Of a stretch of DNA of 32,000 nucleotides, positions 13,229-18,288 are shown piece after piece. Origin of the DNA: Halomicronema hongdechloris C2206 (lineage in GTDB: Bacteria > Cyanobacteriota > Cyanobacteriia > Phormidesmidales > Phormidesmidaceae); contig NZ_CP021983.2 in NCBI RefSeq assembly GCF_002075285.3, positions 4,770,001-4,802,000 on the forward strand. Reading direction: 5' to 3'. Position 1 is the first letter of the stretch. Each line of letters opens with the position of its first letter. The notes under the pieces were generated by a model. That model ran no database searches. It had not been told where the DNA came from and saw only the letters and a program-made list of their open reading frames with translations. Position numbers and translations under genes: made by a program.

Positions 13229-14578
13229 CTAGCGCGGCAGCAAGGGGGTGGCGTGGGCTTTGAAGTTGGCTTTTACCAGGGCATTCACAGTGGCCTCCGG
13301 ATCGTCGACACGGAATTGGGCGCCCAGGCGTACGAGTTGACGATTTTCATTTTGACCAATCATGGCTACCACTGGCACCCGGGCAAAGGCCGAGTCGGTA
13401 CCTTGGTGGCTGCGGATGACGTTGCGCAGGCGATGTTGTTGCTCGATATCGGCGGCCGTCCGGGGTTCCATCTCTACCATCACTAGGCGCACAGTCTCGA
13501 TGGGTTCGGCATCGTCGACGATGAGCTGCACCCGATCGTCACGGCGATCTACCTTGCCCCAGATCATCAGGCGGGCATCGGCAATGATGTGCTGGCCGAT
13601 GCGCTCGAAGGAGCGGGGGAAGACAACTCCTTCGACCTGACCGGAGAGGTCTTCTAGTTGCACGATGGCCATGCGATCGCCTTTCTTAGTTACGACGGGT
13701 TTGACACTGGCCAACATGGCGATGGCACTGATGGTGGTGTTATCGGGTTGGGCCTCCAGATCGGCCAGGTTAATCGGGGCTAGCATCCGGGCCGGACGTT
13801 GCACTGTCTTGAGGGGATGGTCGGAGACGTAAAAGCCCAGGAGTTCTTTTTCCTGGCGCAGTTTTTCCTGGGGGTCGAAGTCAGGTACTAGGGGAGCACT
13901 GGGAGCAGTCTCATAGCCCCCCGGCGCCGCAATGCCCTCGTCACTGCCACCGCTGAACATGTCGAACAGATTGCCCTGCCCTACTTCTCGATCCCGGGCT
14001 CGTCCTTGGGCCCACTCCACCACGAACGGTAGGTCTTGCATGAGCTGGTTGCGATTGGCATTGAAGACATCCAACGCTCCAGAGAGAATCAAGGCTTCTA
14101 GGGCGCGGCGGTTGACGGCATGGAGGGAGATGCGATCGCATAACTCTGCTAGAGATTGAAAGGGACCATTCTCGTCCCGCTCCTGCAGAATGCACTCGAT
14201 CGCCCCCAGTCCCACATTACGCACTGCCGAGAGGCCAAAGAGAATCTGCTGCCCTTCTGGGGTAAAGTCCACCCGCGATTTGTTGATATCCGGCGGCAAC
14301 ACCTCAATGCCCATGGCGACGCAGTTGGCGATGTGCATCTGCACCTTGTCCTGGTCACCGCTGTTGGCCGTCAACAGCGCCGCCATGTATTCCACCGGAT
14401 AGTTGGCCTTCAGATAGGCGGTTTGGAAGGTAACGAAACCGTAGGCGGTGGAGTGGGATTTGTTAAAGCAATTGGAGGCCACCTGACCATTGGCCAGCAA
14501 GAAGTTGTGGTCTGGTTCAACGCCAATGTCATAGACCGGCTGTATCCCCAATGATTTTCGACGAATAATTTTGACCAT
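13229..14578 (-). CDS. dnaE: DNA polymerase III alpha subunit, C-terminal half: IntC split-intein fragment plus C-extein
   Basis: [61 protein letters not shown]... The start is taken at ATG 14578 (GGAG upstream). The track ORF begins three codons earlier at TTG. Confidence 0.95.
   Translation of the reverse strand: [449 protein letters not shown]
14471..14578 (-). mobile_element. DnaE split intein, C-terminal fragment (IntC, 36 aa)
   Basis: Close match to known DnaE IntC sequences (Npu: MIKIATRKYLGKQNVYDIGVERDHNFALKNGFIASN). The terminal Asn is followed by Cys+1 of CFN. Confidence 0.95.
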
Positions 14579-14587
14579 TCTCTCCAA

Positions 14588-14655
14588 CTCCTAAATCCGA
14601 TTAACAATGCGTTAACTGTTAACGGTGAAACGCCTACATCCGCCAAGAATCTCAC
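14588..14655 (-). pseudogene. Truncated DUF5615 (PIN-like toxin) gene; only about 22 N-terminal codons remain
   Basis: A GTG start overlaps the DUF433 stop in GTGA. MRFLADVGVSPLTVNALLIGF resembles the DUF5615 N-terminus (M.FL.DE..SP.....L...G). The frame then runs out of register into the dnaE-c start and IntC coding sequence. Confidence 0.5.
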
Positions 14656-15680: not shown

Positions 15681-15699
15681 AGCACGTCTCCTGAAAGAG

Positions 15700-18288
15700 T
15701 TATGCAATCGCAGGTGACGGCACGTCCACCTGCTTTAACTCTAGCCCCTGTTCAAAGATGTCGTTGATGGGCCGCATCTCCCCAGCGACAGTCATAAATT
15801 TGTGATCTGCCGTGGCTCGAATCGTAGTGCCATTGTCGAGCTGGTAGGCAAAAATTTCCTGATAGCCACGACGATGCCACTGGGCGATGGGCTGAGTATA
15901 GACAAAGCCATTGGCATCCACGCTGTAAACCTGGCATTCAATTTGCTGCTCAACGATTTTGCCGATCGCCAGCGGGCCGTACTCCACCGTCATCACCTCG
16001 GTGTCGTAGCTGAGGCAATACTCGGCAAACTTGACCATCTGATCCCAGAGTACCTCCACTGTCTTCTTGGGCACGCCATTATTGACTGCGCCCTCAATGA
16101 AGTGGCCCTTGTGCTTCTCCATCTCGGCCACTTTCTTCTTACCCATGGCCCGTCGCAGCAGATCCGCCTGCCCCAGGGAATAGCCCGCCATGTCCTGGGC
16201 AATTCTCATGATCTGCTCCTGGTAGACCATGATGCCGTAGGTCTCTTTTAAAATCGGCTGCAAAATCTCATGGGCATAGTCGATGGATTCCCGCCCGTGC
16301 TTGCGGTTGATGAACTTGGGAATCAACCCCGCATCCAAAGGTCCTGGGCGATACAGGGCCAAGACCGAGGAAATATCCTCCAGGCCCGAGGGCTTTAGGT
16401 CTCGCACGATCTGGCGCATGCCCGACGACTCCAGCTGGAAGATGCCCCCCAGATCCCCCTTCTCCAGTAACTTAAAGGCCTTGGGATCATCCATGGGCAA
16501 GTCATCGGGATCCACCTGTTGACCATGACTTTGCTCGATCAAGTCAACGGTCTTCTGAATCATGGTCAGGTTTTTTAGCCCCAGGAAGTCCATCTTCAGC
16601 AGGCCGATGGCCTCCACATCCTCCATGTAGTACTGGGTGATCACCTGACCGTCGTTGTTGCGCTGCAACGGCACAATCTCATCCAAGGGTTCCTTCGAAA
16701 TTACTACCCCGGCCGCATGTACCCCAAAGGTCTTATTGGTGCCCTCGATCCGCATGGCCATATCGATCCAGCGGTGCACCTGGGGATCACTGTCATACTT
16801 CTGCTTAAATTCTGGGGCCGGTGTCTCATCCGAGATCATCACCTTCAGCTTCGCCGGTTTGCCCCGAGCCACCGGAATCAGCTTGGCCATGCGGTCGGCC
16901 TCACCGTAGGGAATATCCAGCACCCGGGCCACGTCCTTCAGCACCGCCTTCGAGGTCATGCGGTTGAAGGTGATGATTTGGGCAACCCGCTCTTCTCCGT
17001 AACGCTCGGTGACATACTTGATTACCTCATCCCGGCGCTCGATGCAGAAGTCGGTGTCAATATCCGGCATGGACTTGCGCTCTGGGTTCAAGAAGCGCTC
17101 AAATAGCAGCCCGTGGTGCACCGGATCGATGTTGGTAATGCCCATGGCATAGGCCACCAGGGAGCCTGCCGCCGAGCCCCGGCCCGGCCCCACCGGAATC
17201 TTATTGTCTCGGGCAAAGCGAATATAGTCCCAGACCACCAAAAAGTAGGTAGGGAAGCCCATCTGGATCATCAGCTGGATCTCGTACTCCAGCCGCTCTC
17301 GATAGACTGGGTCCACCTCGCCATAGCGGGAGACCTTCATCCGCTTCACCAGGCCTTCCTTAGCCACGTGAGCCATATAGTCTTCTGCTCCCTCAAACCC
17401 CTCTGGAATTGGGAAGTCAGGAATGCGGGGCTGCCCCAGGATGTCGGTGTACTCCTCCACCTTGTCGGCCACCTCCAGGGTGGTATGAATGGCTTCGTCG
17501 ATCACCTCGTCGCTCAGGTGATCGCGAAACAACTGCCGCATCTCATCGGCGGATTTCAGGTACTCGGTGCCGCTATAGCGCAGCCGCTTATCTTCGGTCA
17601 GCAGCTTGCCCGTCTGGATGCAGAGGAGGGCGTCGTGGGCCTCCACATCGTTGCAAGAGATGTAATGGGAGTCGTTGGTGCAGATGATTTTAATGTCTAA
17701 TTCCCGGGCAATCTTGACCAGTTCCACATTGACGATGCGGTCTTCCGGGGAGCCATGGTCTTGGATTTCTAGGTAATAGTCGTCGCCGCAGCGGTCTTTA
17801 TACCATTGAGCCACCCGCCGGGCTACGTCGGGACGCTTCTGCAGAATCGCCTGGGGCACTTCGCCCCCCAAGCAGGCGCTGGTGACGATCAACCCTTCGT
17901 GGTATTGCTCTAGCAGCTCTTTGTTAATACAGGGGCGGGAGAAGATGCCCTTGCCTTGTACCCCTTGCAGATGGGATATGGTAGTCAGCTTCACTAGGTT
18001 CTTGTAACCCTGGGTATTTTTAGCCAGCACCACCTGGTGATAGCGGGGCCGCCGCTGCTGCTGAGTGATGTCGCCATTGATGATGTACATCTCGTTGCCG
18101 ATGATCGGCTTGATGCCTTTGCCTTTGCACAGCTTCAGGATCTCAATGGCCCCGTACATGACTCCGTGATCGGTGAGGGCAATGGCTGGCATGCCAAGCT
18201 CTACGGCCCGGTCAACCAATTGGGGCAGTTGGCTGGCCCCGTCGAGCAGGCTGTAGTTGCTGTGAATGTGCAGGCCGACAAAGGACAT
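15700..18288 (-). CDS. dnaE: DNA polymerase III alpha subunit, N-terminal half: N-extein (PHP and polymerase core) plus IntN split-intein fragment
   Basis: [19 protein letters not shown] (PHP)...PDIDTDF...[13 protein letters not shown]...KFAEY|[16 protein letters not shown]...stop. Confidence 0.97.
15703..16017 (-). mobile_element. DnaE split intein, N-terminal fragment (IntN, 105 aa)
   Basis: [105 protein letters not shown]. Cys1 and block B TxxH are present. It closely resembles the Npu and Ssp DnaE IntN sequences. Confidence 0.95.

Follow-up and report, generated by a model that had tools for sequence, protein, structure and literature searches.

Both halves of a canonical split DnaE intein lie in cis in Halomicronema hongdechloris C2206, at what is probably a chromosomal fractured dnaE gene

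A 32,000-nucleotide (nt) stretch of the genome of the cyanobacterium Halomicronema hongdechloris C2206 (RefSeq contig NZ_CP021983.2, positions 4,770,001 to 4,802,000; hereafter the window) was found to carry both halves of dnaE, the gene for the alpha subunit of DNA polymerase III (Pol III), each joined to one half of a split intein, on the same (minus) strand, in N-to-C order and with 1121 nt between them. The upstream gene, dnaE-n (15700-18288, minus strand), encodes 862 amino acids (aa) and ends in TAA. It consists of the 757-aa DnaE N-extein (16018-18288), with PHP, DNA_pol3_alpha (Pol III alpha NTPase) and finger domains and the C-terminal end KFAEY, followed by the N-terminal intein half, IntN, of 105 codons (15700-16017; CLSYDTEV...VPSPAIA). 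The downstream gene, dnaE-c (13229-14578, minus strand), has a 449-aa product. It opens with the C-terminal intein half, IntC, of 36 codons (14471-14578), which has its own ATG at 14578 and a Shine-Dalgarno sequence and ends in ...QVASN with the terminal Asn intact, and it continues into the C-extein (13229-14470; 413 aa and the stop), which begins with Cys+1 in CFNKSH and carries HHH_6 and OB domains. Direct reading and alignment thus place the intein site in DnaE between ...FAEY and CFNKSH.... An earlier reading of the letters alone (the sequence-only reading) had given the coordinates of both halves, the gap and its junctions, and had described a cis pair with the layout of a fractured gene; all of these coordinates were reproduced by open reading frame (ORF) calling and direct reading, and the anatomy was confirmed.

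Cys1, the block-B residues T69xxH72, the terminal Asn (N36) and Cys+1 are all intact in the window pair, as had been read from the letters. When aligned with four relatives and with the IntN sequences of Nostoc punctiforme PCC 73102 (Npu) and Synechocystis PCC 6803 (Ssp), the columns of these residues show no variation, nor do they across 30 IntC sequences, and no inactivating substitution was seen. The window IntN is 67% identical to that of Npu and 53% to that of Ssp, these two reference sequences having been entered by hand. With the canonical split DnaE intein of these strains (Wu et al. 1998; Caspi et al. 2003) the window shares the insertion site (FAEY/C...N/CFNKSH), the split at the endonuclease insertion point, an IntN (105 aa) in the family's range of about 100-123 aa and the 36-aa IntC. 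Judged by its sequence, the pair is a canonical DnaE split intein encoded in cis and apparently competent for trans-splicing. In the characterised strains, Ssp and Npu, separate loci are reported for the two halves, with more than 700 kb between them in Synechocystis, whereas in the window they are 1121 nt apart and probably belong to one operon. A consensus scan of the minus strand between the halves for terminator-like and sigma-70-like sites found none, in agreement with the earlier statement that no intrinsic terminator lies there, and a search of the gap against Rfam gave no match. Since no terminator was seen, a single transcript from upstream of 18288 would span all the cistrons, and the 862-aa and 449-aa products, to go by the intact motifs and the characterised family, would associate through IntN and IntC and be trans-spliced to the 1170-aa Pol III alpha subunit.

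Reading from dnaE-n towards dnaE-c, the gap begins with a spacer of 19 nt (15681-15699, minus strand) that holds the Shine-Dalgarno-like sequence CAGGAG upstream of a stand-alone gene of 225 aa (15003-15680, minus strand). The product of this gene has a predicted PD-(D/E)XK nuclease fold and is 100% identical to XM38_045480 of H. hongdechloris C2206. An AT-rich spacer of 105 nt without an ORF (14898-15002; GC content 0.36) separates it from a DUF433 gene (14652-14897, minus strand; 81 aa counted from GTG, with an alternative ATG five codons inside). The stop codon of the DUF433 gene is overlapped (GTGA) by the GTG of a toxin-gene remnant of about 17 codons (VRFLADVGVSPLTVNAL...; 14601-14655, minus strand, the end coordinate being approximate), and the dnaE-c leader gatttAGGAGTTggagaga (14579-14600, minus strand), with AGGAGTT at 14586-14592, completes the gap. 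Three intervening ORFs had been counted in the sequence-only reading, and two of them, the 225-aa ORF and the DUF433 gene, are the real genes of the gap. The third (14410-14655), which had no match in the family libraries searched, was rejected as a gene after comparison with the intact DUF433/toxin pair of another locus, L014 (the L numbers are our labels for the loci compared). It has about 17 codons that resemble the N-terminus of a DUF5615-type toxin (VRFLADVGVSPLTVNAL, where the intact pair has LRFLVDENTGVVVSRWL), beyond which it crosses the dnaE-c start out of frame; the toxin remnant is truncated where the dnaE-c leader begins, about 20 nt upstream of the IntC start. DUF433 proteins (the window gene matches DUF433 with E=1e-25) are the antitoxin-type partners of DUF5615 toxins. 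As in known pairs, the DUF433 stop in the window overlaps the start of a partner beginning RFLxD..., but this partner is cut after about 17 codons, leaving an orphan DUF433 gene and a decayed module in place of an intact pair. Most likely, Halomicronema acquired a toxin-antitoxin module of the DUF433/DUF5615 type and its toxin gene was later truncated. Downstream of the 225-aa ORF, the GC content of the gap drops to 0.36-0.45.

The arrangement of the two dnaE halves in other cyanobacteria was surveyed with an IntN alignment in a set of genomes that represents each GTDB species once. The scan gave at least 590 matching stretches, of which the 80 best were analysed with 10-kb flanks by tblastn and ORF analysis. 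In 30 of the 80 loci, a dnaE-c with a genuine IntC lies directly downstream of dnaE-n on the same strand, and N-to-C order is kept in every one of the 30; two complete genomes, Trichothermofontia CP110848 and Capilliphycus CP178543, likewise have dnaE-n followed by dnaE-c. Another 30 loci lack dnaE-c over at least the first 5 kb downstream, one has IntN running into IntC without a stop (L081), one has a 225-aa ORF 4 kb downstream of dnaE-n without dnaE-c (L077), and in 18 the flank is too short to tell. About half of the informative loci in this non-random sample are therefore in cis. The sequence-only reading had implied that the arrangement is rare, with a genome survey set beforehand as the means of refuting this, and the implication fell: adjacent halves are common, and the window is one member of a widespread pattern.

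Several of the surveyed loci have features of their own. L081 (8562-8970; Phormidium sp. MFD04603_ilm_asm_bin3, JBAVZX010000889.1, a single contig of a metagenome-assembled genome) carries a contiguous mini-intein at the canonical DnaE split site, in which IntN ...GLELKRIEQV is in frame with IntC IVKIVSRKSLG...ASN/CFNKSH and ATA stands where IntC would have its ATG. By its appearance, this is a cis locus with a short gap whose halves were fused again secondarily, and if so, it counts against irreversibility of the dnaE break. In L077 (7691-12636; Nodosilinea sp. P-1105), the 225-aa ORF lies 4 kb past dnaE-n and no dnaE-c follows in the next 5.3 kb; this locus may be an intermediate from which dnaE-c was relocated with the cargo left in place. 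For the C-extein of nine Oscillatoriales loci (L018, L020, L021, L025, L030, L032, L045, L058 and L059), the best tblastn segment covers query residues 1 to about 329 at about 55% identity, and for the N-extein of L027 it is shorter than 600 aa. These shortened segments may reflect extra insertions, for example further inteins, or strong divergence.

The gaps of the relatives hold a homing-endonuclease gene of another kind. Fourteen of the cis loci have a gap of about 750-780 nt that contains a single ORF (257-266 aa), intact or in a frameshifted or decayed state; taxa with this ORF include Microcoleus, Laspinema, Capilliphycus, Microseira and Leptolyngbya PCC 7375, among others. The encoded protein combines an N-terminal helix-turn-helix with two LAGLIDADG motifs, LLGLIAADGC and LGYFDGDGC, and scores 39.9-42.6 bits against Pfam LAGLIDADG_3 (PF14528), for which the gathering threshold is 22.5. 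The gene has its ATG 1 nt past the dnaE-n TAA and, at its stop, shares 8 nt with the start of IntC (...AGGAGTTACAAACATGGTTAA), and dnaE-n, the LAGLIDADG gene and dnaE-c are tightly coupled cistrons in three different reading frames (example copies are L025:5557-6336, L027:10306-11106, L041:10324-11097, L046:10300-11082 and L168-L170:4001-4780). The gene sits where the endonuclease domain of an intein would be; it differs from intein-borne LAGLIDADG_3 enzymes in being a separate cistron whose frame is unlike that of either intein half, and the window is without it. Its family comprises 230 clusters, and among the best 120 of these all are about 259 aa long and every one with a named source is cyanobacterial. 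Every locus examined for a copy has it between dnaE-n and dnaE-c, and this includes all three of the distant genomes compared, Chroococcidiopsis FACHB-1243, Chamaesiphon polymorphus and Trichothermofontia sichuanensis (complete). The LAGLIDADG gene has diverged in step with the extein (56-69% identity for the LAGLIDADG gene and 70-77% for the N-extein), and it is found in both major branches of the neighbour-joining tree of DnaE. The leader before IntC in the window has kept AGGAGTT, a motif that in these relatives makes up the last codons of the LAGLIDADG gene and also serves as the Shine-Dalgarno sequence of IntC.

Gaps of 35-348 nt were found in six cis loci. Both ends of the LAGLIDADG gene are clearly kept in L051 and L032, and a few nt of them in L036/L083; these short gaps are the product of internal deletion. 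The loci in decay (L051:10309-10427, L032:10312-10608, L036/L083:10309-10345 and L074:10308-11091) form a series with a frameshift in Microseira wollei, no long ORF in L035 (L035:10321-11084) and internal deletions after which 295, 117 or as little as 35 nt remain in Microcoleus ARI1-B5, Limnoraphis and Lyngbya. In two loci (L030:10312-10336 and L035:10312-10321), the TAA of dnaE-n has been lost (gatataAAATG...) and the IntN tail extends into the start of the LAGLIDADG gene before a stop is reached.

In place of the LAGLIDADG gene, the window carries the 225-aa gene. Searches of Pfam, NCBIfam and PHROGs with the 225-aa ORF gave no match, and neither did a profile search with its family against all PDB chain sequences; the PD_DExK profile of PADLOC matches residues 71-194 with E=6e-8. 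An AlphaFold2 model of the protein (pLDDT 91, pTM 0.90) was matched by Foldseek to MGME1, Cas4, Exo5 and mitoribosomal proteins, the last of which we take to be restriction-endonuclease-like. E64, D106, E126-x-K128 (E126-A-K128 in the window) and Q139 are invariant in 41 homologues. By profile, motif and predicted fold, the protein is assigned to the PD-(D/E)XK superfamily. A nuclease between the halves had been suggested earlier by analogy only; the nuclease fold is borne out by these results, and an intein-type LAGLIDADG enzyme is not.

The family of the 225-aa protein has 316 representatives among 1.84 billion proteins, nearly all of them stand-alone and about 220 aa long. It is unusually conserved, with a mean column identity of 62% across phyla, and also has members in Thioploca, Desulfobacteraceae and Caldilineaceae. 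Among members not linked to dnaE, neither a constant neighbour nor another split host gene was found; they lie in variable islands, and the Thioploca and Kovacikia copies are placed among toxin-antitoxin, Uma2 and PDDEXK_2 genes. In Thioploca ingrica AP014633 (L006:5977-9561), the homologue stands within a run of small nuclease-like genes that comprises three unannotated ORFs of about 200 aa (one related cluster with a ...VIEAKK... motif), Uma2 and PDDEXK_2 and is flanked by VapBC, HEPN/MNT-like and DUF29 arrays.

The closest homologues of the window ORF lie between dnaE halves, in Cyanobacteria bacterium P01_A01_bin.123 (82% identity), Leptolyngbyaceae SM1_1_3/RM1_1_2 (74%) and Nodosilinea LEGE 06152 (64%), and the gene is found in the same position in Sphaerothrix gracilis, casp40-mb.69, Synechococcales 1108005 and four metagenome contigs. 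These dnaE-linked copies group together in the family tree and begin 15-33 nt after the dnaE-n stop; in Sphaerothrix, the ORF neatly fills the slot, 22 nt past that stop and 18 nt short of IntC. Divergence of the gene runs parallel to that of dnaE, at 50-85% identity against 78-93% for the N-extein, in a comparison that omits rows for the window 225-aa ORF, whose own identities are taken from tblastn. Most likely, the slot in a clade of Halomicronema, Sphaerothrix and Nodosilinea-like cyanobacteria is filled by a vertically inherited 225-aa gene. In loci with the 225-aa ORF (the window, L008, L012 and L048), the codons of the IntN tail ...AIA* read GCGATCGC or GCGATTGC, so that the HIP1 palindrome of cyanobacteria, or a sequence one base away from it, lies exactly at the dnaE-n stop; in the window, the tail (15700-15712) ends in the HIP1-palindrome-like GCGATTGC. 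Such a site at the slot boundary could be a recombination hotspot, although this is speculative.

As to what the gene does, the chances seem about even that it is a selfish passenger, a putative nuclease exploiting a transcribed, hard-to-delete niche in an essential operon. A host-beneficial factor is unlikely, and we consider it just as doubtful that the protein is a true homing endonuclease that took over from the LAGLIDADG enzyme and, by cutting ORF-less alleles, maintains the fractured dnaE or spreads it. Homing is favoured by the exact placement of the ORF in the endonuclease slot, most strikingly in Sphaerothrix, by the invariance of catalytic-type residues in the family, and by the finding that no sampled locus has both the 225-aa ORF and the LAGLIDADG gene; the dnaE-linked copies are, moreover, as divergent as 50-55% identity (L029, L108 and L132). 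The fold itself can do the job, since I-Ssp6803I is a cyanobacterial, intron-encoded homing endonuclease of the PD-(D/E)XK fold. That enzyme is much smaller than the 225-aa protein, and no sequence relation between it and the 225-aa family emerged, the profile search of PDB having given no match. In a homing role the protein would also be functionally analogous to the GIY-YIG and Vsr-like enzymes of the metagenomic fractured genes of Dassa et al. (2009). The distribution of the family fits such a role poorly: about 95% of the sampled members lie away from dnaE or any obvious split gene, in toxin-antitoxin/Uma2/PDDEXK_2 islands, and no intein-embedded, intron-embedded or fused version of the domain was found among the 316 representatives. 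Unlike the LAGLIDADG gene, the dnaE-linked 225-aa gene shows no decayed copy in the sampled loci, and its long retention without decay, together with the unusually high conservation of the family, counts against a simple homing cycle.

What accompanies the 225-aa gene differs by lineage, which suggests that the gap is a landing pad for selfish genes. Downstream of the 225-aa ORF, the window has DUF433 and the toxin stump, its closest relative has a Tdi1_C-like gene, and the gaps of other loci hold Schlafen/HATPase, DUF2513 and PemK-like genes. In L029 (3076-7241; Synechococcales cyanobacterium 1108005), the dnaE halves are separated by 4.1 kb that contain two Uma2-type nucleases, a DNA methyltransferase-like ORF and an EcoO109I-type restriction endonuclease (Pfam E=8.5e-90), with the 225-aa ORF last, immediately upstream of IntC; a restriction-modification system is thus lodged in a split replicase operon. 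The gap in an essential operon may thus be a safe harbour for selfish genes such as nucleases, toxin-antitoxin modules and, in one case, a restriction-modification system.

The sequence-only reading had left open whether the locus is a relic of the broken state or the product of a later re-juxtaposition. A relic is most likely, because the same order and strand recur in 30 of the 80 species, a LAGLIDADG gene lies exactly in the break in many of these and the AGGAGTT leader is kept in the window; re-juxtaposition fits far worse. Under the latter, distant halves would have been brought together in the Halomicronema lineage and the toxin gene truncated at the joint. The toxin remnant does end abruptly about 20 nt before the IntC start, as a recombination or deletion joint would leave it, the GC content falls across the gap, and the close relatives Nodosilinea PCC 7104 and Leptolyngbya PCC 6406 have no dnaE-c within 10 kb. 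We nevertheless regard such a history as very improbable. A deletion within cargo inserted into a pre-existing gap is a simpler cause of the truncation; order, strand and the co-diverging 225-aa gene are common to at least eight other lineages; the AGGAGTT leader and IntC start are common to the loci that carry the LAGLIDADG gene; and random rejoining would not yield 30 of 30 cis loci in N-to-C order on the same strand. The data point to a cis state that predates the split of the window from the other lineages with the 225-aa gene. That the locus is a chimeric join in the H. hongdechloris scaffold is scarcely credible, since, although the genome is a hybrid 454/Solexa/PacBio assembly whose paper mentions chimeric PacBio reads and manual contig joining (PMC6416890), independent Illumina or hybrid assemblies of at least eight related taxa, and about 30 species overall, have the same dnaE-n then dnaE-c, with 225-aa homologues between them in the related taxa, that of P01_A01_bin.123 being 82% identical to the window copy in the same position.

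Taking the locus as a relic, we propose that the cis state was inherited and not re-assembled. Many other cyanobacteria have, in the break, a free-standing, double-motif LAGLIDADG gene translationally coupled to both halves, and in some lineages this gene would have decayed and been deleted. In others, the halves would have become separated, giving the textbook trans arrangement, and in the Halomicronema/Sphaerothrix/Nodosilinea-like clade the slot would have been taken by the 225-aa PD-(D/E)XK-fold gene. That the window locus is a chromosomal 'fractured' dnaE with an Npu/Ssp-type intein still in cis is probable. On balance, though with less assurance, we also favour the view that the split DnaE intein of cyanobacteria was ancestrally arranged in cis and that the trans arrangement of Synechocystis and Nostoc was derived from it by loss of the endonuclease followed by uncoupling.

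Several points weigh against these conclusions. The 80 genomes are those with the IntN closest to the query and are neither a random nor a complete sample, and the trees are neighbour-joining trees without support values; 'ancestral' is consequently a parsimony-level statement. Lateral spread of the whole intein and endonuclease cassette could mimic ancestry. In the window, no gap ORF has a LAGLIDADG match in Pfam and a relaxed tblastn search gave a best E of 0.3; as no LAGLIDADG remnant is detectable there beyond the leader of about 12 nt, replacement of the gene in this lineage is deduced from the relatives only. An intein-specific role of the 225-aa family is argued against by the proportion of its metagenomic members that are dnaE-linked, 4 of 80, and by the position of distant members in toxin-antitoxin/Uma2 islands. 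In the proteome supplements for H. hongdechloris that were searched, the genes of the dnaE locus are not listed.

Fractured genes and the split DnaE intein are both known kinds of arrangement. In the former, a host gene is broken at an intein into adjacent, co-directional halves with a free-standing nuclease gene between them (Dassa et al. 2009, NAR 37:2560; PMC2677866). The 26 loci of that study came from marine and freshwater metagenomes, were phage-like and involved other DnaE integration points, new intein types and GIY-YIG or Vsr-like endonucleases; the model put forward there has the halves become uncoupled in the genome once the endonuclease gene is lost, and names cyanobacterial DnaE as the uncoupled end state (PMC2677866). 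The window shares with these loci the adjacent, co-directional halves, each with one half of a split intein, and a nuclease-fold gene between them, although a homing role for this gene is putative and its family is mostly unlinked to dnaE. It differs in lying at the canonical cyanobacterial DnaE site on a cellular chromosome and, where its relatives carry a LAGLIDADG gene, in carrying a gene of another, PD-(D/E)XK, family together with toxin-antitoxin debris. With a LAGLIDADG gene in the break at the canonical site and its loss elsewhere, the series of cyanobacterial loci fits the proposal of Dassa et al. No description of adjacent dnaE halves, or of a LAGLIDADG ORF at the canonical site, was found in the full-text literature searched, which did not cover Caspi et al. 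2003. The occurrence in chromosomes of the canonical site in cis, with a LAGLIDADG gene in relatives and a PD-(D/E)XK substitute in the window, thus appears to be undescribed in that literature. Being without the LAGLIDADG gene, the window is not the most informative member of the pattern.

If the cis state is indeed ancestral, living cyanobacteria keep a series that runs from an intact LAGLIDADG gene through its decay and deletion and its replacement by other selfish cargo, as in the window, to uncoupled halves, with at least one secondary re-fusion to a contiguous mini-intein. Such a series would contradict a single irreversible break tied directly to the separation of the halves. Among natural split inteins, that of DnaE is the founding example, and the protein-ligation tools in widest use are built on it. 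How the gene of an essential replicase could come apart without passing through a lethal stage has been an open question. This question is discussed by Dassa et al., who could offer only phage-like, metagenomic analogues at other sites (PMC2677866). The cellular cis loci with a coupled LAGLIDADG gene would be the missing intermediates at the canonical site itself, and the stages of decay, replacement and re-fusion would extend the series, so that the model of fracture followed by uncoupling becomes directly testable. The cis loci also correct the statement, repeated in reviews, that the dnaE halves are always at separate loci.

Elsewhere in the window, a strongly negative AT skew (to -0.38) was observed at 6000-8600, across the plus-strand ORFs 5966-7072 and 7011-8555.

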